DNA of 64,000 nucleotides, from the IMG/VR virus record IMGVR_UViG_3300022843_000001, positions 64,001 to 128,000 of that record; one strand, 5' to 3'. The position numbers and the translations under genes were made by a program. The notes below the pieces were generated by a model. That model had not been told where the DNA came from. It worked only from the letters and a program-made list of their open reading frames with translations, and searched no databases. This DNA is from a virus. How positions within the stretch are numbered: the first letter of the stretch is position 1; every line of letters starts with the position of its first letter. Below, one piece after another: positions 21,198 to 61,826 of this stretch.

Positions 21198-22586
21198 CTA
21201 CATCTTAAAGTTTGTAAATTCAGGTTTGTCTCTATTACCAAAACTATTTATGGGTGCGTCAGTTGTCCCTGGACTAGTTTCTATCAGACTTTGAGCACCT
21301 TCTTCAACATCATACAACTTCATTTTAGGTCTGTCAACACCTATAACAAATCGTTTATAAGTACTCAAATCTGCATAACGATTCTTAAGTTGTTTAACCA
21401 TAATCTGATTAAGTTTTTCTAGTTCGTCATTAGTTATTAGTGCGAACATAAAATCAGCCGTGGCGGGTAAACCCCATGATTCACTTGTGTTTGTAAGATC
21501 AACATCTGAATTGTTAGCGCCATCACGATTTGACTGTGTTGCCGTAACGACAGGTAGATTATTTTCCACCGCAAGTCCTCGCAATTCTTCAGCAATAGAT
21601 TTTACCAAGGTATAGCTATTAATACTTCCGCCAATTCCTTTCATTCTTGAGGATGAACATATGTTTAGATAATCAATAAAGATAATCGTCGGCACGAAGT
21701 TCTTCTTCAACTTAAGTTCATCCAACAATGCTCGGAAATGGCCGGCGTGTGCTGCCCCTGTTGGATATTCCTTGATGATTAACTTACCATTAGTTTTTGC
21801 CTGTATTTTGTCAACCTTCGACATATACATATCTGAACTTAGATTAGTAATTTGATCTAGTGGCACATTAAAAAGATTTGCGTCTATACGCTCCGCAATT
21901 CTTTCTTCTGCCATTTCCATAGTAATATATAGTACATTTTTCTGTTGAGCAAGAGATGCCGCGGCCATGTGACACATAAACAAACTCTTACCAACACCTG
22001 TGCTTGCAAGTATTACATTCAGAGTTTTGTTTGGAAGACCTCCTTTAGTAATTCTGTTGAAGTAATCTAGATCAAAAGGAGTTCGAACCTCTTTTTGGTG
22101 ATAAAAATCATAGCGATCTGAAGCATTTTCGAAATAGTCATGACCTACACTGGCATCAAATGTAACCGCAAGTGCTCGTTGTAACAAGTCAGGTAATGAG
22201 TTTTTGCTAAGATTGTCATGAGTGCCATCAATGATAGTAATTGATTCCATGATTGCAAGATAAATAGCTCGATCTTGGCACCACTTTTCTGTATTTTCAT
22301 ATAACCACTCAGGGTTAACATCTTCAACCTTGTCCAACTCATTCAACACAATAAGTGCATCTGAATATTGGTGTTCAGTTATATCACTATTCTGTAATTC
22401 AATAGATATCGCTTCAATATTTGGCAGATTATTATATTTACTAACAAAGGAAACTATTGTTTCGAACACCGACCGATGGATTCCTTCAAAGTAATCTTTT
22501 TTAAGAAAAGGTATTACTTTTCGAGTAAACGAGTCATTTGCTAATAGATTTCGCAAAATAGTAGTTTGTATAGACGCTGTACCCAT
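21198..22586 (-). CDS. gp41: Replicative DNA helicase
   Basis: ASTGVGKS, YITMEMAEERIAERIDAN, IDYLNI, ATQSNR, QLKNRY. Confidence 0.96.
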   Translation of the reverse strand: MGTASIQTTILRNLLANDSFTRKVIPFLKKDYFEGIHRSVFETIVSFVSKYNNLPNIEAISIELQNSDITEHQYSDALIVLNELDKVEDVNPEWLYENTEKWCQDRAIYLAIMESITIIDGTHDNLSKNSLPDLLQRALAVTFDASVGHDYFENASDRYDFYHQKEVRTPFDLDYFNRITKGGLPNKTLNVILASTGVGKSLFMCHMAAASLAQQKNVLYITMEMAEERIAERIDANLFNVPLDQITNLSSDMYMSKVDKIQAKTNGKLIIKEYPTGAAHAGHFRALLDELKLKKNFVPTIIFIDYLNICSSSRMKGIGGSINSYTLVKSIAEELRGLAVENNLPVVTATQSNRDGANNSDVDLTNTSESWGLPATADFMFALITNDELEKLNQIMVKQLKNRYADLSTYKRFVIGVDRPKMKLYDVEEGAQSLIETSPGTTDAPINSFGNRDKPEFTNFKM

Positions 22587-22969
22587 TATTCAGAAGGCTC
22601 GTCTTTGGTTTTCTCGGCTGGCATTTCACCTATCTTTGCTTCTAATGAATCTGTTATAACATGAGTCAACAAATCGCCGATGTAATTCTGAAAATAAGAA
22701 TCATGTTCTAATGAGGGGTCACCTTCGATCAACTTCCAGTCAAAAGAAACTTTAAGTCCCTCAACATCATTCGAATCTTCTTCATGAACCTGAACTTGGC
22801 CAAACTGAAATTTTGTATCTGTCCACTGGCCGGTAGTCAAATGAATTGTATAATGGTCGTCTTCAGGTCTTTCGACAAATTTGAAATCGTCGTTTGATAT
22901 AATATGAGGCATATAGTTTCCATAATTAAGTTTATAATACATTGTATCATAAAAGGGGTTGTTTGTCAA
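22586..22969 (-). CDS. Hypothetical protein in the gp40 position (between uvsX and 41)
   Basis: Synteny only. The true start is likely downstream (MPHII), since the ORF start overlaps a promoter. Confidence 0.55.
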   Translation of the reverse strand: MTNNPFYDTMYYKLNYGNYMPHIISNDDFKFVERPEDDHYTIHLTTGQWTDTKFQFGQVQVHEEDSNDVEGLKVSFDWKLIEGDPSLEHDSYFQNYIGDLLTHVITDSLEAKIGEMPAEKTKDEPSE

Positions 22970-24063: not shown

Positions 24064-24092
24064 ATTATAACACAAACTGACAGGGTTGTCAA
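24064..24092 (-). promoter_or_regulatory. Sigma70-type promoter for uvsX
   Basis: TTGACA-17-TATAAT. Confidence 0.85.
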
Positions 24093-24096
24093 CCTA

Positions 24097-25572
24097 TTAA
24101 TATCCATTAATTTCTTTATAAAGCGCAAAAGACATACTACCCATAGCGATGTTGTGTTTAGCCGAGATCATTACAAGATTCGAAAATTCTGTCTTTCCAC
24201 CCCTAGAGTGAGCAACAAGGTGACCGCCGTGAGCATCTTCCATTTTTAATGGTTTTCCATCTACTGCACATTTATAACCTTGTTCCGCCAGTTTGGATTC
24301 TCGCATTGTCTTCGAAAAGAATCGTCTTGTGTCTTTGATTGTAATCAATTGGGTAAAATCAAGATATTGTGTAAACCAACCCAAACATGTTTTCATTCTT
24401 TCGGCATCATCATATTCACCCAATGTATCTTTGAACTGAAGACCTATTGTCTTGTTTTGATTGTAAGGAGATACCTGATTCTCAGGCTCTTCCATATCAG
24501 CAACAGGTTTGAAGAATTTTTCATCCATTACTTTTTTCAATGCATCAAAATACGCCGCATCATCGATTATTTTGAATGAGCCGAACTCCTTTTCCATGTA
24601 CATCCAAACCCTCTTAAACAACTCAAATTCTCTTTTACCAAGACCGCTATTCAATTTCATCTTTTTGACTTCAGCCATTCTTTTGACATGATCCAAGGTC
24701 TTATGTACCTTTTTCTTTAAATTATCAACCTTTTTAAAGTCCAAATCTTCATCAGAATACATCTCTAAAAGTTGTTTCTCAGCGGCTAAACCAATACCTC
24801 CTTTATCATCACTGTGATATCTATAGTATATTCTAGCAACAATTTCATCTATTTTGAGTCGGCTTGGGTCGAATGTCAACCAAGCCAGATTCTTAACACT
24901 ATAATCGAAAAGTGGGTGACACGTTGAGTTAATGCCCGCAACCAATCGCGCAGTTTCTCTAACCGCGTTGGCGATTGCAATGTCTCCATAAGAGTTAAGA
25001 GTTTCTTGTCTGTTAACTGGAGTCGTCTTATTCAATGTTCTGAATATATCACCAATTTCACTTGGGGTTAAGTTAACATATACGGCAAAAAGCAAAGGAT
25101 ACTTCAAGAAATCATCTCTTTCTTCGTCTGAATAATCCACCCAAAGTTTTCCATCAACATGAAACTGGTTATTCACAAAAGCATAAATATATCTTTTTCT
25201 GTTGCCGCCATCAATACTTGCGAATGTGTAAGAATCAGCCGGAACTAGACCAGTACCCTTCTGAGAGATTCTCTTTCCATCGAACTGATAAGGTTTAAGC
25301 GCGGATTTTTTTGGAATTTTGTGAATAGTGATCTGACCGATATCATAACCTTTCATCATCGTAGAGATAATACCTTGCGCCTTCGAAGGTGTTTTTTCGG
25401 TACCTTCCAATTTCGGAGCAACGTCTAAACGCTGACCAACAGGTTGAGTATCGATAATGTTATACAGTAATAAGTATTCTTTAACCGTGATGGTTTCACG
25501 AAAGAACTTAAGTCCTCTTTTTACATAAGGTTTGTTTTTACCCATTCCTAATAATTTATTCACATCAGACAT
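24097..25572 (-). CDS. DUF262 (ParB/GmrS-like) plus C-terminal HNH nuclease, GmrSD-like
   Basis: IISTMMKGYDIG, SIDGGNRKR, IFRTLN; C-terminal GHLVAHSRGGKTEFSNLVMISAKHN. Confidence 0.75.
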   Translation of the reverse strand: MSDVNKLLGMGKNKPYVKRGLKFFRETITVKEYLLLYNIIDTQPVGQRLDVAPKLEGTEKTPSKAQGIISTMMKGYDIGQITIHKIPKKSALKPYQFDGKRISQKGTGLVPADSYTFASIDGGNRKRYIYAFVNNQFHVDGKLWVDYSDEERDDFLKYPLLFAVYVNLTPSEIGDIFRTLNKTTPVNRQETLNSYGDIAIANAVRETARLVAGINSTCHPLFDYSVKNLAWLTFDPSRLKIDEIVARIYYRYHSDDKGGIGLAAEKQLLEMYSDEDLDFKKVDNLKKKVHKTLDHVKRMAEVKKMKLNSGLGKREFELFKRVWMYMEKEFGSFKIIDDAAYFDALKKVMDEKFFKPVADMEEPENQVSPYNQNKTIGLQFKDTLGEYDDAERMKTCLGWFTQYLDFTQLITIKDTRRFFSKTMRESKLAEQGYKCAVDGKPLKMEDAHGGHLVAHSRGGKTEFSNLVMISAKHNIAMGSMSFALYKEINGY

Positions 25573-25603: not shown

Positions 25604-25632
25604 ATTATACCATAGGTGTGGTATAATGTCAA
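25604..25632 (-). promoter_or_regulatory. Sigma70-type early promoter, palindrome at 25663-25678
   Basis: TTGACA-17-TATAAT; ATTATACCA/TGGTATAAT inverted repeat across the -10 box and spacer. Confidence 0.88.
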
Positions 25633-25677: not shown

Positions 25678-26619
25678 CTAATAGTTATTACGGTAAATGT
25701 ATTCTATTGCTCTTTCTGCTTCCAATTCAAAAGGTCTTTGGCCGTACCAGTTTCCAGTCTCTAGATCGATTTGACGGCATAATTGTGCAATTTCATGTGA
25801 TGTTATAGGGTACTCCATTCGTACAGCATTCGCGGCTATCTGAACCATTAAGGAATACATTTTGTGATACCAGCCAGTCCCTGATATTTCCTTGTATTGA
25901 TCAATCATGTACTTCTTGACGAACTTGCAGTCATGAAAAGACGTCCAAGACACTTTAGTTTGTTCCTGATTGTCCTTTCGTTGTTGTATAATCATTTCCT
26001 GCATAGCAGCAGGTAAGCGCTCGAAGAAGTTGCCACCGACTTTTCGTTCTGTAGGCGGCATAGGGTGTTTCTTTATAAGTTCGTCAACATCGAGTACAGC
26101 GCCAGTGTTTGTAAAGATAAAATTATTAGCACCATCATAACACGCAGGAATATAGTACATACGACTAAAATCTTTAACTTGTTGATCTCCCATTGAACCG
26201 AAAGTGGTGTTGAGAGCATACCAAAAGTCTCTAATGTTTTCCGTCTTGATGATATTTTTAACAGGAAACACCAACCTGAATTTAGGTTTGTCTTTAGTAC
26301 TTGAAGCTGTGCTATAACAAATATAGTAATAAGCACCAAATCTATTATGAAGTTCATCTTTTAAGTCTCCTTTACATTCATGATCATCTATGTCGAGCGC
26401 GGCCCATGCGCCCCATCCGGTAACATTTTTGTTCGCTCTTGTTGTTCCTTCAATATAAGTAGCAGGAGATATCAAACAAGCATTTTTCTTTCCAGCACAC
26501 GGTACCTTACTTAAACCATACAACAGCGACTCAAATTCAGCAAAGGTTTTAAACTCTGCCAATTTGTGAGTCTTGTTGTCATATAAATCATTAAATATGG
26601 TGAATGCAGTATCAGACAT
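25678..26619 (-). CDS. Archaeo-eukaryotic-type (Prim-Pol) primase-like protein
   Basis: AALDID (DxD), [22 protein letters not shown]; helical C-terminal domain. Confidence 0.7.
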
Positions 26620-27568
26620 ATAGCTTGAAATATTCTATAGTTTTCTCAAGGCCCTGATGTAAACTTACTTTTGGTTCCCAATCTAATTCTTTCTTAGCTT
26701 TAGTTATATCTGGGCAGCGTTGCTTAGGATCATCGAGAGGAAGGGGTTTATTTACGATTTTAGATTTAGTGTCAGTCATCGCAATTACCACCTCGGCCAG
26801 TTCACGTATTGTAAATTCTACAGGATTGCCAAGATTAAAACAAGGGTTGTTTAAATTTACATTTGTATTCATTAAACTAACAAGACCGTCAACCAAATCA
26901 TCAACATATTGGAATGATCTTGTTTGAGTACCATCTCCATATATTGTAATGTCTTCACCACGAAGTGCCTGCATTATAAAGTTTGACACCACTCGCCCAT
27001 CAAGTGGGTCCATTTGTGGCCCGTAGGTGTTGAATATTCTAGCAATCTTCACCTCAGTCCCGTATGATCTGTTATAATCCAAACATAAAGATTCTGCGGC
27101 ACGTTTACCTTCGTCATAACAACTACGAATACCATTTGGATTTACATTACCAAAATATGATTCTGGTTGCGGAGTGATGCTTGGGTCTCCATAAACTTCA
27201 CTGGTAGATGCCTGAATTATAGGACATTTATTTGACCGAGCTATTTCTAGGACATTTATCATGCCGTAGACATTCGTTTTCATTGTGTGTACAGGATCGT
27301 TTTGATATGCTGGAGGTGAAGCAGCACAGGCTAAGTTGAATATCATATCAACAGACATCATAGAATAAGGGTTTATAATATCGTGTTCAACCACAGTGAA
27401 GGGCATACCTTTCGCTGTATCCGAGTTTGGATTCAAATGCTTGATATTAACCATTCTGCCGGTTTGAAAATTGTCTAGACAAATGACCTCATGACCGGCG
27501 CCCAACAATCTTTTACAAAGATGGCCGCCTATAAATCCTGCGCCGCCTGTTACCAGTATTTTACTCAT
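26612..27568 (-). CDS. UDP-glucuronate decarboxylase (UDP-xylose synthase-like SDR)
   Basis: [78 protein letters not shown]. Confidence 0.9.
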
Positions 27569-27857
27569 CTTCTACATCCACGTAGCGTAGCAGAGTATCT
27601 TCAAATCGATCAAGTTGTGGAAACCAAATAGACTTAGTTTTATGTGTCATAGGTTGTTCCATTCTTTCTGCAAATAATTGATAGTCTTCTTCACATCTAA
27701 AACGTACCCTTACTATACGATGCACTCCGGCCTCGTCTCGTTTACCACTAGAATCATGAACATACTCAGGCATGCCATCCCAATCTAATGGCATGGATTC
27801 TTCTTCTTGTCCAGTATTGACAAATAAACTGTTTACTACAGGTCTTTTAACGGCCAT
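27561..27857 (-). CDS. Small acidic protein of the type seen beside TAGT glycosyltransferases
   Basis: WDGMPEY...[14 protein letters not shown]...KTKSIWFP. Confidence 0.6.
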
Positions 27858-27892
27858 GGCCTGATATTCCTCATTTAATTAGATTATAATCT

Positions 27893-27921
27893 ATTATAAC
27901 ACAAAGAGATGGTGTTGTCAA
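27893..27921 (-). promoter_or_regulatory. Sigma70-type promoter
   Basis: TTGACA-17-TATAAT. Confidence 0.85.
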
Positions 27922-27923
27922 CC

Positions 27924-28775
27924 TTAATCAACCTTCGGTTCTTCTAGTCTGGTTAATTCCATTCCGTAGTTATCAACACCTTTTTTAATGTTAAGGCCTT
28001 CTTTCTTGATTAATCGGTTATTCTCGAAAGATCGATAGTCCACATGATGATGCCACCGGCCGTATTTTTCCACAATCTCTACAACATCTGGGTGTTGATC
28101 ATACAAAGACTTGGCAAACTTGAATCGATTGTCTTTGTCAGCGCCATAGACTTCATCGGTATTACCACCTTTCATGCTCAGAGTACCTGTTTTACCGCAA
28201 AGAAAAGCATTGAACAATATAGTACAATCCCCGTCTTTCAACACTCTAAGACTTAGATCAGTGTCCTCATTATATTTGCCGCGCCACCGGTGAACAGTAT
28301 CGTTGGCAATTAACAAACAACTGTAGACGCGAGTGTTTGCCAGATATGCTGGACGAGTAGTAGATCGCTTTGGTATAAAATAGAAATATTGCATTCCCGC
28401 AATCTTGACATTTTCATATCGATCTGTAAAATCCTCTGCGGCACGAAAAGTTGTGCCAGAAGTTACACGGACTCGTTTGTTCTTGTTGAATCGATAAAAA
28501 CATTTAATGTTGTCGTCAAGAATCCAGTGGCGTTCATGGCCTTCAGATATACTGTGATCCCAAACCCAATTTCTAGCAGGTATACTTCCTTGCCCTAGAT
28601 TGCTGAACGGCAACACCAATATTTTAGCAGGGTCAATAACCGCAGCATATTCATCATACTCCTGAGGCTCGATTACAATCCTGTAGGGAACCTTCATCAG
28701 TTCCAAAGCATCTGAAGTCTGGCGAGATTCCCACCGACCCTTCGATATAATATAGACAGGATATTTCGGGTTCAT
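27924..28775 (-). CDS. TAGT/GREB1-like GT-A glycosyltransferase
   Basis: YPVYIISKGR, VIEPQEYDEY, GSIPARNWVW, WILDDNI (DxD-like), YSCLLI, YNEDTDLSL, GGNT. Confidence 0.8.
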   Translation of the reverse strand: MNPKYPVYIISKGRWESRQTSDALELMKVPYRIVIEPQEYDEYAAVIDPAKILVLPFSNLGQGSIPARNWVWDHSISEGHERHWILDDNIKCFYRFNKNKRVRVTSGTTFRAAEDFTDRYENVKIAGMQYFYFIPKRSTTRPAYLANTRVYSCLLIANDTVHRWRGKYNEDTDLSLRVLKDGDCTILFNAFLCGKTGTLSMKGGNTDEVYGADKDNRFKFAKSLYDQHPDVVEIVEKYGRWHHHVDYRSFENNRLIKKEGLNIKKGVDNYGMELTRLEEPKVD

Positions 28776-29188
28776 TTATAATCGCCCAATAAAGGTAACA
28801 GATTTGGTTCAGAATAATCCTCTCCTTTCAAAATCTTACCATCACTTCGATATATAGGATTGCCGAATTGATCCAATTTTGACATATTAGAACGTTGAAC
28901 TTCATTAAAGGTTAAGTCTAGAGGTATACCGTAGGTATGGCCTGCACCGTATGTCACATACAGAATATCAGTTAAGGCATCCGCTATCTCAACCATATCG
29001 TCATCGAGCACCGCCGCCTCTAATTCTAAGAGTTCTTCCCGTATCAATTCGATGCGAAGCAAGGCCTCGGCTTTAGTTGGAAAAGCCGGAAATGTTCGTA
29101 CAGGTTGCCCAAAGGTTTCCATGAAACGCCCTACTTTTGCAAAGTTACTTTCAGAATTACTCATAATTATCTTTTCCTGTTTATACAT
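28772..29188 (-). CDS. MazG-like (PRA-PH family) nucleotide pyrophosphohydrolase
   Basis: LIREELLEL...EIADALTDILYV.YG...EVQRSNMSK...DGKILK; the likely start is MSNSES. Confidence 0.88.
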   Translation of the reverse strand: MYKQEKIIMSNSESNFAKVGRFMETFGQPVRTFPAFPTKAEALLRIELIREELLELEAAVLDDDMVEIADALTDILYVTYGAGHTYGIPLDLTFNEVQRSNMSKLDQFGNPIYRSDGKILKGEDYSEPNLLPLLGDYK

Positions 29189-29190
29189 GT

Positions 29191-29219
29191 ATTATACACT
29201 AATTATTAGTGTTTGTCAA
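29191..29219 (-). promoter_or_regulatory. Sigma70-type promoter
   Basis: TTGACA-17-TATAAT; the spacer is the near-palindrome ACACTAAT-T-ATTAGTGT. Confidence 0.85.
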
Positions 29220-31756: not shown

Positions 31757-31785
31757 ATTATATCATAATAATGGGTACTTGTCAA
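31757..31785 (-). promoter_or_regulatory. Sigma70-type promoter for gp43
   Basis: TTGACA-17-TATAAT; ACCCATTAT/ATAATGGGT inverted repeat at 31753-31776. Confidence 0.85.
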
Positions 31786-32911: not shown

Positions 32912-33498
32912 TAAGATATAGCTATGATTAGTTGTTGCATACGAAGAACGTCTACGACAATATCGTGCTCCGGGTCATGTTTTTTAAACTTTTTTCCCAA
33001 TCCGTCGGGCATAAAGCTATTTTTGATATCAGAACCATAAGATAAACCTTCAATAAAAGATCTTGTGTCTCGTACAGTCCAGAAGTTATGCGGTTCGGGG
33101 TAACCTAATTGCTTTGCCCATGCAGTTGTAATCATTGGGTCAAATGTATTTCCACGAGTAAAGACTCGGGTCACACCAGCCGCTTCATTTTTAATGATTC
33201 CGATAAGATTAGTAATAGATTGATCTACTCCTGGATTAGGAACCAATTGAGTATTTCTTACGGCTGCAGGCAGCGCTTCCCACCATGCTACAGTTTCTAA
33301 ATTAATCTTTCGTTTATAGGTTTTTACCTGTTCTGCCACGTCAAATTTGAAGAATTTAGTTGCATCTAGCAACTCTTGAAATGTGTATGGATTTGTTGTG
33401 AATCTTTCTGGTTCATATCGCATCGTGGCGATAGATAATACAGGCAAGGTAACCACGTCAGTGTCTAGTGTTTCGTAATCGTATATTAAGTTAGTCAT
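32911..33498 (-). CDS. dexA: DexA-like 3'-5' exonuclease
   Basis: DYETL, TVAWW, TRGNTFD, FWTVRDTRS, HDPEHD (DEDDh); start refined to MTNLI. Confidence 0.85.
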   Translation of the reverse strand: MTNLIYDYETLDTDVVTLPVLSIATMRYEPERFTTNPYTFQELLDATKFFKFDVAEQVKTYKRKINLETVAWWEALPAAVRNTQLVPNPGVDQSITNLIGIIKNEAAGVTRVFTRGNTFDPMITTAWAKQLGYPEPHNFWTVRDTRSFIEGLSYGSDIKNSFMPDGLGKKFKKHDPEHDIVVDVLRMQQLIIAIS

Positions 33499-34433
33499 TA
33501 TTTGAACTCCGTTGAGGACATTATTTCTGTCAAACATGCCACGACATTAATCTCTTTGTCAGCACAAAATGCATCGCGAAATTGATAATCAGCAATGATA
33601 AGTACGACAGTTGGTATTGATGATGGCGCGATTGAATCTGACATTGAATCATATATGCGTCTAAATATTACATGAGACTCTGTATCGATATTGTCTGCAA
33701 CCCATTTTCTCATTAACTTGAAGTTTTTATCCTTCAAATAAGCAAGAAGATTATTAAAGCTTTCATCACCTAGATTGACCAGAATGCCTGTATCAATTTT
33801 ACCCGATATAGAGTATCGCTGACATTCGTTTAATATACGGCGAAAATCTGGAAAGTATCTCTGTACAAGTTCAGCAAGGACTTTCTTGTCGTATTCGATG
33901 CCTTCCTTATCAAGGATGCCTGCGGTACGTTTGAAGATGCCATTCGCAATGGCAGGTTTTTGTGCTGAAGGTATAGAAAAATCATAGACCGAACATCTCG
34001 AATGAAGCGGCTCGATAATACGATTGCGGAAGTTGCACGTTAGAATGAACCGACAGTTGTTGGAAAATTCTTCGATGAAACCGCGAAGCGCAGGTTGGGT
34101 AGATTGTGGATTTAGATAATCTGCTTCATCTAGAATCACAACTTTATAACCACCTTGAAGTGATACAGTAGAAGCAAATTGCTTTATAGTTGTTCGCAGA
34201 GTATCAATATTGCCATTTTCCGACCCGTTTATAATAAGATAATCAAGATCAAGTTCTTTACAAAGCGCTTTGGCAACGGTCGTTTTACCAACACCTGCAG
34301 TACCAGCAAACAACATATTTGGCACTTCACCTGATTTGATGATTTCAGAAAATGTCTTCTTTAGATCACTGGTGAGAATAGTATCATTAATTGTTACCGG
34401 CCGGTACTTTTCGACAAATAGAAATTCACTCAT
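33498..34433 (-). CDS. gp44: Clamp loader large subunit
   Basis: EKYRP, GTAGVGKTT, LDEADYL, QPALRGFIEEFS, PLHSRC. Confidence 0.96.
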   Translation of the reverse strand: MSEFLFVEKYRPVTINDTILTSDLKKTFSEIIKSGEVPNMLFAGTAGVGKTTVAKALCKELDLDYLIINGSENGNIDTLRTTIKQFASTVSLQGGYKVVILDEADYLNPQSTQPALRGFIEEFSNNCRFILTCNFRNRIIEPLHSRCSVYDFSIPSAQKPAIANGIFKRTAGILDKEGIEYDKKVLAELVQRYFPDFRRILNECQRYSISGKIDTGILVNLGDESFNNLLAYLKDKNFKLMRKWVADNIDTESHVIFRRIYDSMSDSIAPSSIPTVVLIIADYQFRDAFCADKEINVVACLTEIMSSTEFK

Positions 34434-49813: not shown

Positions 49814-50639
49814 GATATGATCTTATATGTTTAGGGATGCAATGTGCCGCCATAGCTCTATCACAATATTCACATTTGATTTTGGGTTTTGATCGACCCT
49901 TCGCTTTAGTTGTAGTACCCTTATTGTGACCTTGTTGGATCCAATCATCTCCGGGCTTTTCGTTTGCTTGAGTACGTTCATAGGTTACAGTATTATACCA
50001 ACACTTTCTACCTTTCATATCAGGCATAGAATCAAGTTTTTTCTGAACAAAAACAGGATTTTGCATAGGATTGTTAGTATTCCACACATTCGTTTTATTT
50101 TTAGTACGAGTTTCTATAGACTTCTTATGAGTTTCCTCATCATTGAAGGGACTGTGCTCTTTCATAAACTCGCGTTGATTTTCTCTTTTCCCCGAATTCC
50201 ATTCAGCAACCATCATCTCAGATTGAGTGATGGCGTCCCTTCGCCCATCTTTGTAACTAGCTTTCATATCTTCGGACATCATGGCTGCAAGGTCTCTTTT
50301 TAGACTTTCGTATACCCTATTGGTTACACGACTTTCTGTGTTATTTGATTTCATAGACATTGCTGTATATGCCCTTAACATAGAATATCGACCTTTGTCC
50401 GTTATAAATTTAGGCAACAGCACGTGTGCTAAATAATGTTCCCTTGCTGTTAATCTTACCATATTATTTTTTGCATTACAACCACCAAGAGATTTAGGTA
50501 ATATGTGATGGTTTTCGGTGTAATTGTCTCTATCTACAGGATTAGCTAACCGGTTAGCTATTATATTACAATACCAATTATAATATTTGTTTATGTTCTT
50601 GCCCTTGTAGCCATTTATCGTCAATTTCGTGAGATTCAT
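49791..50639 (-). mobile_element. Free-standing HNH homing endonuclease splitting uvsW
   Basis: TENHHILPKSLGG...NMVRLTAREHYLAH; C-terminal CEYC...H...H; late promoter at 50676-50683 inside the upstream CDS. Confidence 0.88.
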
Positions 50640-59415: not shown

Positions 59416-61107
59416 TTACTGACCTGCTATTTCAGAGAATTCGACCCCCGTTCTAGTTGCAATAAAGTTCAATGTAATATAATTTATAGCTCGGGCAGGT
59501 TTGATATAAATATCAGCAACAAAGTTGTTGCTATCGATAACCTGACCCGTGTTATTAGTAGAATCACAAACAACTTTAAAGTCTGTTAAACCACGACGGC
59601 CTTTGATATCTCGTAAGAATGGTTCAACCATATTTCTGAATTGTGCGCGAGTAAACTCATCATTCAATTCAAAGAGTTGAAATTTAGATGCAGTTGCAAC
59701 AGCCTTCTCGAGGACGATAAACAGACGACGAACATTGATTCGATCAAACGCAGATGGGCGAGCCAACATAGTTTTATCACCGTAAAGAATAGTTCCTTCA
59801 CCTGGGAATGAAACGATAGGGTTAACGCGTGCCTTGTAAAGATCATCACGCTCCGCTTTTGTAGGATTATATGCAATCTTAACTGTGTTCAGAATCTGAC
59901 CACGATTAAATCCAGCAGGCGAGAACCATGCATCGGCAACACCATCTGTATAAGCACAAAGTCCTGCGGTATGTCCGTTAGCAGGAATCCAACGATAAAG
60001 ATCGTTGTATTTGTCGTAGATTTTAACAGCAGTAGAATCAGCAACAGAATATGAAGTAGATGCAAGTGCGTTAAAATATTCTAAAACGTTTGTAGCAGGA
60101 GTTGCAGCGTTAACTGTATCTGCGATTGGTGGTGATATAAAAGCAACACAATCCTTCCGGCCTTCAACCAAAGTAATTACTTTAGCGCCCAGGGTTGTTA
60201 CACCGTTAACGTCAACTGGAGCGATTAACAAGTTAATGTCAACAGTTTCAGCATCTGCAAACAGATCAAGTGCTATTGATAATTCACCAGCAGTAGCAGC
60301 AGAACCTTCAACACCACCATTAAGAGTAGTAACTTCGGTTGTACTTCCAGCAGTAAAATCAGTTATACTTGTAGTGCCAGCATCGACAGCAGTAGTGTGA
60401 TCAAGCCAGTAGATGTATTCTGATGTTGAAGCAATAACTTCAATATAGTAGTTAGAAGTACCATCAGTTTTCTTTGCATCAGAAGCAGCAGAAACATATG
60501 CGAATTTTTCTAAAACGTTTCCAGGTGTTCCTGAGATTGTACCCAATGTGTCTATAACGATAATGTGCATTTCATCAAGAGACCCACCACGAGCAACCGC
60601 GTAATCAGAAGAAGTAGGTTTAGAATCAAATTCTTTGTCGTATCGAGCAGCAGAACCTGTCCAAACTGCCCATGCGGCGTCTGACGCAGGACAAACTTCA
60701 ACTTTGATTCCGTTACCGATAGTTCCTGCAGCACGTGCGCCCCAGATACCAACAGAAGCTTCACCAGCCTTAAAATTGTCTTCGTAATGTGATAGATTTT
60801 TGATTAATAATCCAGTTCCAGAACCAGTTGCATTTACTTGTAATGCCTTTGCAGCACGAACAATTCTTAATGAATTTCCGTATTTTAGAAATGCTGCAGC
60901 TTGAAAGAATGGGGTGAAATTTGCGGTGGTTGGTTGACCGAACTTAGCAACCATATCTGTTTCTGATGAAACAGTAGTTACTTCGCCAATCGGGCCCGCC
61001 GAGAAGTCGCCAACCAAAGCACCTATCGATGTAGATACTGCGGGTACGACATTCGTTAAGTCAATTTCCTTGACTTGAACGCCTGCTGATACTTGAAATG
61101 CTGACAT
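59416..61107 (-). CDS. gp18: Tail sheath protein
   Basis: GVQVKEIDLT, AWFSPAGFNRG, SAFDRINVRRLF, IKPARAINYI.LNF; late promoter at 61167-61174. Confidence 0.97.
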   Translation of the reverse strand: MSAFQVSAGVQVKEIDLTNVVPAVSTSIGALVGDFSAGPIGEVTTVSSETDMVAKFGQPTTANFTPFFQAAAFLKYGNSLRIVRAAKALQVNATGSGTGLLIKNLSHYEDNFKAGEASVGIWGARAAGTIGNGIKVEVCPASDAAWAVWTGSAARYDKEFDSKPTSSDYAVARGGSLDEMHIIVIDTLGTISGTPGNVLEKFAYVSAASDAKKTDGTSNYYIEVIASTSEYIYWLDHTTAVDAGTTSITDFTAGSTTEVTTLNGGVEGSAATAGELSIALDLFADAETVDINLLIAPVDVNGVTTLGAKVITLVEGRKDCVAFISPPIADTVNAATPATNVLEYFNALASTSYSVADSTAVKIYDKYNDLYRWIPANGHTAGLCAYTDGVADAWFSPAGFNRGQILNTVKIAYNPTKAERDDLYKARVNPIVSFPGEGTILYGDKTMLARPSAFDRINVRRLFIVLEKAVATASKFQLFELNDEFTRAQFRNMVEPFLRDIKGRRGLTDFKVVCDSTNNTGQVIDSNNFVADIYIKPARAINYITLNFIATRTGVEFSEIAGQ

Positions 61108-61169
61108 GTTTTTATCCTTTGTTAAAATAATAAGAAATCATAATAAGGTTGTATTCAATTTACATATAT

Positions 61170-61826
61170 TTATATCAAATGGTATCTGCGAATCTTTGAT
61201 TTAGATATTCCAGTGAGACGCCAAGCCTCAGATATAGAACTATACAGCTTATTGTCTATTGATACTTCTTTAGATTGTGTTTGTATATAGCCGTTCTCAT
61301 ATAACATTTTTAAACTCTTTGACATTTGATCTCTAACACGAATATCACTCATGGCTTTAATCTTTTTGTCGACAGTTTCGCTACTCTGTTTTACCCCCAT
61401 CTTGCTTTTTGATATCTTGCTTTTTGTTTCTTCAGATTTCCTTTTTCCGGTATTAGCAATCTTCAGCTTGAGTTTAAATGATTCAGATTTAGGCTTTCTT
61501 GCACCTTCTAATGCTGATTTCTCACTGATAGCAAAATTATCCGTTTTATTGAGGAATTTTAAATTTTCAACGACTCTCATTCGTTTTAAAACTACATTTT
61601 CCCATGCTATAGCATTTGAACTATTATCAAAGATTCTTCTTATATTGATAATGTCAGGTTCGCCATATTCCATTCTGAATGATTTGACGTGCTTAGAAGA
61701 AGTAAAGTAAGATACCCATAAATCATCGGGGGTACAGTTTTTGGCATATCTTACCCCATAATAATATTTGGCATATTTCGACCATCCTATAACATAAGTA
61801 TAAGGTTTATAACTAATGGTAGACAT
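61170..61826 (-). mobile_element. Seg-like GIY-YIG/NUMOD3 homing endonuclease between gp17 and gp18
   Basis: PYTYVIGW...YYYGVR...YFTSS, and KSEETKSKISKS NUMOD3 repeats; late promoter at 61893-61900; start refined to MSTIS. Confidence 0.8.

Follow-up and report, generated by a model that had tools for sequence, protein, structure and literature searches.

A UDP-xylose synthase and a TAGT-family glycosyltransferase at the DNA-modification locus of an uncultured T4-like phage: candidate DNA xylosylation on a non-classical acceptor

Sugars attached to phage DNA overcome restriction enzymes as well as CRISPR nucleases and make sequencing more difficult, and all modification systems of this kind known to us start from a hydroxylated pyrimidine. 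The best-known case is the glucosylated 5-hydroxymethylcytosine (hmC) of the T-even phages, including the TAGT-type beta-glucosyl-HMC-alpha-glucosyltransferase of T2 and T6. Here, we describe a module of four genes at positions 26612-29188 of a 64,000-nucleotide stretch of viral DNA ("the window", bases 64001-128000 of the 198,785-bp record IMGVR_UViG_3300022843_000001) that resembles the T-even systems in its position between gene 43 and uvsX, in a glycosyltransferase of the same PF20691/phrog_842 family and, as predicted from promoters, in early expression alongside replication genes. The record carries direct terminal repeats and is rated complete; it was assembled out of salt-lake metagenomes and represents an uncultured T4-like phage whose sequence occurs in 24 salt-lake metagenomes among the matches listed, always as contigs and with no RNA dataset among them. 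Unlike T-even phages, it encodes neither a dCMP hydroxymethylase nor a first alpha- or beta-glucosyltransferase supplying a sugar acceptor, its donor is probably phage-made UDP-xylose instead of host UDP-glucose, and its transferase comes with a separate adaptor protein. The explanation that we tentatively place first, at slightly less than even confidence, is that the products of these early-expressed genes xylosylate the phage DNA on an acceptor of a non-classical kind.

Pentosylated cytosine is known in T4-like phages, as arabinosyl-5-hydroxycytosine in RB69 and DLP3 (PMC13326640) and as pentosyl-cytosine in Shewanella phage Thanatos (PMC12838424), and our phage would share with them the T4-like background, a DNA pentose and its own nucleotide-sugar supply. 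Those systems need a ThyA-homologous 5-hydroxy-dCMP (5hodCMP) synthase, GT-B transferases and UDP-arabinofuranose from ribulose-5-phosphate, whereas here there is no ThyA homologue, the transferase is of the GT-A/TAGT type and the predicted donor route leads from UDP-glucose over UDP-glucuronate to UDP-xylose. Metaviromic clusters of 5mYOX/TET enzymes and JGT-like GT-A transferases have the GT-A family, its R...DD(D/N)...ED motif and neighbouring sugar-tailoring enzymes in common with our module, but no 5mYOX/TET enzyme or C5-methyltransferase was found in this genome. A further parallel is offered by the ParB-dependent T-dioxygenases, phage DNA dioxygenases that a ParB homologue activates on double-stranded DNA (PMC13229309), in that the adaptor is associated with ParB domains in relatives, though the adaptor of this phage has none. 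The DNA-hypermodification cluster of Bacillus phage SP-15 includes a gene for a UDP-glucose dehydrogenase (PMC5977210), 28% identical to the one described below, and clusters of our phage's relatives resemble that of SP-15 in holding phosphomannomutase and nucleotidyltransferases; however, the SP-15 pathway begins with a hydroxymethyl-dUMP synthase of the ThyA type and places glucose and phosphoglucuronate on dihydroxypentyluracil, and SP-15 has no UDP-xylose synthase (UXS) and is not among the tblastn matches of our TAGT. Earlier publications thus already cover DNA with pentoses, sugar donors made by phages and GT-A transferases acting on DNA; what is new here is the UXS route, the split into transferase and adaptor with ParB-fused variants, and the finding that complete genomes contain none of the known acceptor-making enzymes.

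An earlier note made from the sequence alone had placed four genes between gp43 and uvsX, and profile matches together with the assignment of the flanks bear this out. The interval is filled exactly by four co-directional open reading frames (ORFs; lengths in amino acids, aa):

28772-29188, minus strand: MazG-like / PRA-PH all-alpha NTP pyrophosphohydrolase, 138 aa (PF01503)
27924-28775, minus strand: TAGT-family GT-A glycosyltransferase, catalytic subunit, 283 aa (PF20691, phrog_842)
27561-27857, minus strand: orf98, putative acidic TAGT adaptor as a separate protein, 98 aa
26612-27568, minus strand: predicted UDP-glucuronate decarboxylase / UDP-xylose synthase (UXS), 318 aa

The glycosyltransferase matches the TAGT profile PF20691 over its full length (residues 5-204 on profile positions 1-205; E = 2.4e-43, 148.9 bits against a cut-off of 27.5 bits), and its R68, D87-D88-N89 and E170-D171, which fit the family motif, are invariant across 57 relatives, confirming the TAGT/GREB1-like identity proposed before. 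PDB sequence searches with the protein or the TAGT profile gave no match, and tblastn with it at E 1e-3 did not reach the TAGTs of T-even phages. Its fold was read from a homologue fused to the adaptor (L035) with a predicted structure of pLDDT 87.5 and pTM 0.84 (predicted local distance difference test and predicted template modelling scores), the catalytic part of which is a GT-A fold that matches GT-A structures and viral TAGT models, including that of the T-even-type protein PKO111 (E 9e-11). On this model, the transferase in the window would be a GT-A-fold enzyme with the family motifs. Enzymes of the TAGT family with GT-A fold glycosylate 5hmC in DNA in experiments (bioRxiv 10.1101/2023.12.21.572611), and a TAGT of the T6 type occupies the position of beta-gt in T4 (PMC13390438). 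IMG/VR holds 296 relatives of our TAGT, of which 80 loci were fetched (58-94% identical).

The last gene of the module encodes an SDR (short-chain dehydrogenase/reductase) of the extended type that matches human UDP-glucuronate decarboxylase UXS1 (hUXS1; 4gll/2b69) over residues 3-315 with E 1e-99 and 337 bits, compared to 1e-44 for the next-best PDB class, and that shares 62-65% identity with proteins from bacteria that bear the name UDP-glucuronic acid decarboxylase. Its N-terminus carries the NAD-binding glycine motif GGAGFIG. The UXS group is marked by Thr118, Ser119, Glu120, Tyr147, Lys151 and Arg277, whereas epimerases put Ser and Thr at group-specific sites (PMC3438964); in hUXS1, Thr118/Tyr147/Lys151 form the catalytic triad and Ser119, Glu120 and Arg277 are the group-specific residues. 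All six are kept in our phage's protein (in the order first given: T122, S123, E124, Y151, K155 and R284), and because of this and its similarity to UXS1 and bacterial UXS, we accept the "well-preserved UDP-glucuronate decarboxylase" of the earlier note as a genuine UXS-type enzyme predicted to convert UDP-glucuronate to UDP-xylose.

The preceding step could be provided by a UDP-glucose dehydrogenase-like ORF of 267 aa (genome positions 61016-61819, L011:4016-4819, minus strand) that lies outside the window, ca. 30 kb from the module, and was detected when almost all of the genome's ORFs of at least 100 aa were scanned with Pfam (PF03721, E 3.7e-13; PF00984, E 9e-16). This mini-dehydrogenase keeps the GxGxxG motif as GKGFVG and the catalytic cysteine in GGHCFPKD, and more distant homologues are found in Bacillus phage SP-15, Campylobacter phages of the CP220 group and Vibrio phage Kuja. 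The suggestion that the phage makes its own pentose donor is therefore supported by UXS and the mini-dehydrogenase, which in relatives are both physically linked to TAGT. Genome positions 50141-50539 (L010:12141-12539, minus strand) encode a 133-aa TagD-like cytidylyltransferase that is most like glycerol-3-phosphate and ethanolamine-phosphate cytidylyltransferases and shares 60% identity with a gene between dehydrogenase and SDR in the TAGT locus L080; possibly it attaches a phospho-alcohol to the same glycan.

What had been described as a small acidic neighbour, orf98, is indeed present and acidic (21 D/E versus 13 K/R, counted on the translation), but it is not incidental and appears to be a conserved partner (adaptor) domain of TAGT. 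While orf98 matches nothing in Pfam, PHROG or NCBIfam and its Atlas neighbours are unnamed viral clusters, it aligns to the stretch by which Aeh1p093, the longer TAGT protein of Aeromonas phage Aeh1, is extended at its N-terminus (BLASTP E 8e-10), and an adaptor homologue adjoins TAGT in 64 of the 80 loci, usually as a separate gene just upstream, sometimes as a fusion, and downstream in T4-like loci. A profile search among longer proteins revealed four kinds of adaptor fusion: with TAGT, with a ParB N-terminal domain, with a different DXD glycosyltransferase family and, once, with both TAGT and ParB. The fusion with the ParB N-terminal domain recurs in many proteins of ca. 200 aa, and at least 11 of the 80 loci have it directly upstream of TAGT. 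Modelled alone, the adaptor gave a poor structure (pLDDT 67.6) that was left out of the fold searches; as a segment of the natural fusion with TAGT (L035), it reaches a pLDDT of 76-93. These natural fusions and the fold of the fused homologue suggest that the adaptor binds TAGT.

In the 80 fetched loci, the SDR is the more variable companion: it adjoins TAGT in 18 and is not adjacent in 62. Six of the 18 carry the UXS signature and the remainder the Ser/Thr signature of epimerases, one of them being most like structures of the UDP-glucuronate 4-epimerase type. UXS orthologues adjoin TAGT in L018, L025/26, L048/49 and L085, which fall into different parts of the TAGT tree, and in nine TAGT loci a mini-dehydrogenase adjoins the SDR, so that the UDP-glucuronate branch point, followed by decarboxylation or epimerisation, would be a recurring accessory of TAGT. 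The order TAGT-adaptor-(SDR)-primase recurs in T4-like relatives, which also have the MazG gene ahead of TAGT and carry extra sugar genes for phosphomannomutase, a cupin, a TagD-like cytidylyltransferase and a GT4 glycosyltransferase; tblastn with the relatives' GT4, phosphomannomutase and cupin genes found no homologue in this genome. At L081:3932-12195 (and similarly in L076, L079, L082-84, L091 and L096), the interval from gp43 to uvsX holds a larger sugar island with phosphomannomutase, cupin, cytidylyltransferase, MazG, TAGT, adaptor, primase, GT4, an epimerase-type SDR and the mini-dehydrogenase.

Outside the T4-like phages, TAGT sits amid genes for ERF, YqaJ, PolA, uracil-DNA glycosylase (UDG) and helicases. 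In two such loci (L035:3185-9334 and L041:5731-9334), a fused adaptor-TAGT follows a radical-SAM/SPASM enzyme and directly precedes a UDG + 3'-5' exonuclease protein and a family-A polymerase, and UDG-linked family-A polymerases have recently been tied to phage genomes with modified thymine (PMC13697223). ThyA homologues are encoded by Aeh1, Kuja and GD1, cultured phages whose TAGTs are more distant. Among them, Vibrio phage Kuja (Ackermannviridae) has two tandem TAGT genes of the long form (L002:5581-8269) besides its ThyA and UDP-glucose dehydrogenase homologues and could serve as a laboratory model for the family.

The module is embedded in a replication block whose other genes are, in the direction of transcription:

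33498-34433, minus strand: gp44, 311 aa
32507-32911, minus strand: gp62, 134 aa
32116-32538, minus strand: regA, 140 aa
31789-32088, minus strand: orf99, 99 aa
29227-31728, minus strand: gp43 family-B DNA polymerase, upstream flank of the module, 833 aa (PF00136 and PF03104)
25678-26619, minus strand: gp61-like primase, flank in the same predicted transcription unit as UXS, 313 aa (phrog_9765, E 6.8e-50)
24097-25572, minus strand: unnamed ORF between primase and uvsX, 491 aa
22981-24030, minus strand: uvsX recombinase, downstream landmark, 349 aa (PF21134 and PF00154)
22586-22969, minus strand: orf127, 127 aa
21198-22586, minus strand: gp41 helicase, 462 aa

In T4, the order is 44-62-regA-43-imm.1-imm-42-bgt-segA-uvsX-40-41. 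The module therefore occupies the slot of gene 42 and beta-gt, as the earlier note had recognised in calling this the T4 DNA-modification locus, and judging from gene order it stands in for the dCMP hydroxymethylase and beta-glucosyltransferase genes. Within the module, the genes overlap by 4 nt (MazG/TAGT) and 8 nt (orf98/UXS, with the orf98 stop codon overlapping the start of UXS), UXS overlaps the primase gene by 8 nt, and TAGT and orf98 are separated by 66 nt.

This gap is one of five intergenic positions with a perfect (12/12) predicted sigma-70 consensus site (TTGACA-17-TATAAT), each on the coding strand and ahead of a gene of the replication block:

31757-31785, minus strand: predicted site before gp43
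29191-29219, minus strand: predicted site in the gp43/MazG gap
27893-27921, minus strand: predicted site with extended TG in the 66-nt TAGT/orf98 gap
25604-25632, minus strand: predicted site before the 491-aa ORF
24064-24092, minus strand: predicted site before the uvsX unit

Promoter-like sites as a whole are not in excess in this region (34 versus 31 in shuffles), but the five perfect matches in such placement stand out. The units set by them are gp43, MazG with TAGT, orf98 with UXS and primase, the 491-aa ORF, and uvsX, and we count the sharing of such promoters between module and replication genes as support for a role in DNA modification.

In the mechanism that we favour, host sigma-70 promoters would drive two units, one of MazG-like gene and TAGT and the other of adaptor, UXS and primase. 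The truncated UDP-glucose dehydrogenase would oxidise host UDP-glucose to UDP-glucuronate, UXS would decarboxylate the latter to UDP-xylose, and TAGT, with the 98-aa adaptor holding or directing it, would move the sugar onto phage DNA after replication, where it would shield against nucleases as glucosyl-hmC does in T4. The enzyme families, their catalytic residues, the linkage of adaptor and TAGT, the linkage of UXS and dehydrogenase to TAGT in relatives, and the synteny with T4 42/beta-gt are supported at the level of sequence; from these, we infer UDP-xylose as the donor of TAGT and DNA as its acceptor. The donor link is favoured because of the UXS signature, the mini-dehydrogenase, their adjacency to TAGT in relatives and the fact that TAGT is the sole glycosyltransferase found in the genome, and DNA as a target is favoured because characterised phage TAGTs act on DNA, because of the beta-gt slot and replication-module context, and because of the ParB-fused adaptors.

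Several observations weigh against this proposal. The ThyA-family profile PF00303 has no match in the complete genome, while its control matched in 10 genomes, and tblastn with three phage ThyA homologues was equally negative; neither is there a match to the TET/JBP profile PF12851, a weaker result given that the control matched no genome. Both profiles are also absent from three relatives rated 100%, 98% and 100% complete. Furthermore, TAGT is 58-69% identical across relatives alike with or without an adjacent sugar enzyme, and no alignment column splits UXS-linked TAGTs, which are scattered on the tree, from the others, so that use of UDP-xylose is not visible in the TAGT sequence. The mini-dehydrogenase ends just after its central domain and lacks the C-terminal UDP-sugar-binding domain PF03720, though this short form is not a local accident, as judged from thousands of environmental homologues of conserved length (262-277 aa, ca. 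60% identity). Finally, the TAGT-family protein O-GlcNAc transferase GREB1 glycosylates a protein (PMC7968844).

The Pfam scans found no oxygenase and no C5-methyltransferase either, and the classical routes to hmC, hydroxymethyluracil (hmU) and 5-hydroxycytosine (5hoC) are therefore not supported. The earlier caveat that neither a hydroxymethylase nor TET is visible in the window thus extends to the complete genome and the three (near-)complete relatives, and the search for a base hydroxylase or hydroxymethylase in the rest of the genome that had been proposed alongside it returned none by PF00303, PF12851, ThyA tblastn or Pfam scans. The usual context of TAGT, a TET/JBP 5mYOX enzyme or ThyA homologue alongside, is not found here, but it is a matter of context and not part of the Pfam definition. 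In a published survey, ca. 65% of phage glycosyltransferase contigs had no neighbouring base-modifying enzyme and most phage GT-A genes were left unexplained. We consider hmC or hmU as acceptor unlikely, and in our best explanation the sugar goes onto a canonical group of DNA or onto a base made by an unrecognised enzyme. Of the earlier proposal that a phage-made pentose donor serves to hypermodify DNA, possibly as a xylosylated base, the donor pathway and the locus have held up, whereas an hmC or hmU acceptor is improbable and no TAGT residue tracks UXS. A more specific version, to which we give a low probability, is that TAGT and adaptor are self-sufficient and, without any hydroxymethylated or hydroxylated base, place xylose from the phage's two-enzyme pathway on a canonical DNA group such as an exocyclic amine.

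Lack of a known acceptor-base pathway in this and related complete genomes is also what one would expect if the substrate of TAGT and adaptor were a protein or some other molecule of the cell, glycosylated early in infection from UDP-xylose or a UDP-sugar of the host so as to aid host takeover or counter-defence. The family membership of GREB1 fits such a target, as do the several counter-defence genes of this genome (Tad2-like, Tad6, Acb2/Tad1) and the solved folds nearest to the L035 model, which are protein- or polymer-directed GT-A enzymes like ColGalT1, SunS/ThuS and TarP. Yet the module lies in a replication or recombination context in very different phages and in the beta-gt slot of T4, fusions of its adaptor with a ParB N-terminal domain recur, and those TAGTs of phages that have been characterised act on DNA, so we regard a non-DNA target as possible but doubtful.

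The variable presence of sugar genes around TAGT raises another alternative, that UXS does not feed TAGT, which would then use a host UDP-hexose, as its many relatives lacking sugar genes would have to, while UXS and the mini-dehydrogenase, for example, redirect or drain host UDP-glucose and UDP-glucuronate. The 62 TAGT loci with no adjacent SDR and the missing residue pattern tied to UXS are in line with this, and UXS and dehydrogenase also occur in phages outside the TAGT matches, such as Aphanizomenon phage Yong-DA and Pseudomonas phage QdP_Psa3. In several T4-like relatives, GT4 lies directly beside SDR and mini-dehydrogenase, suggesting that a second transferase uses the special sugar there, though GT4 is absent here. 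However, translational coupling links UXS to the adaptor gene, UXS orthologues adjoin TAGT in several independent contexts, and the Pfam scans detected no other glycosyltransferase family in this genome that might use UDP-xylose; overall, we find it unlikely that the two are unconnected and retain UDP-xylose as the favoured donor.

The MazG-like protein at the head of the module matches PF01503 (E 2.9e-19), which upholds its earlier identification, as well as phrog_671 (E 3.7e-39), and its nearest solved relative is the dUTPase-like MazG DR2231 of D. radiodurans (E 1e-9). It may be plain nucleotide housekeeping or, by analogy, may supply dUMP to ThyX, which the genome encodes together with a dCMP deaminase and a dNMP kinase, consistent with ordinary nucleotide metabolism. 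ThyX was also considered as a hidden acceptor-maker and rejected, being near TAGT in just 2 of the 80 loci. The 491-aa ORF between primase and uvsX looks like a variable insertion, since it is missing from the closest relative L018; it has only weak C-terminal nuclease matches, and its assignment as GmrSD/DUF262 was not supported, with no PF03235 match at E<=1 and no PDB match. Palindrome frequencies, with unremarkable 4-mers (0.71-1.3) and a few depleted CG-rich 6-mers, were judged uninformative. Pfam matches to the signalling-defence inhibitors Tad6, Tad2-like and Acb2/Tad1 hairpin domain and to RtcB lie at 27.9-64.9 kb of the genome and 45-64 kb of the window.

Taken across its relatives, the system has a modular design in which a constant core of transferase and adaptor is combined with varying sugar-nucleotide genes, namely none, the xylose route or what is likely a uronic-acid epimerase route. 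The four genes described here provide a compact test case for the target of orphan GT-A transferases and, if DNA is that target, possibly new enzymes for DNA labelling. If the hydroxylation-independent reading is true, xylosylated DNA and DNA glycosylation independent of hydroxylation would each be seen here for the first time, and the many "orphan" GT-A genes of phages would have an explanation.

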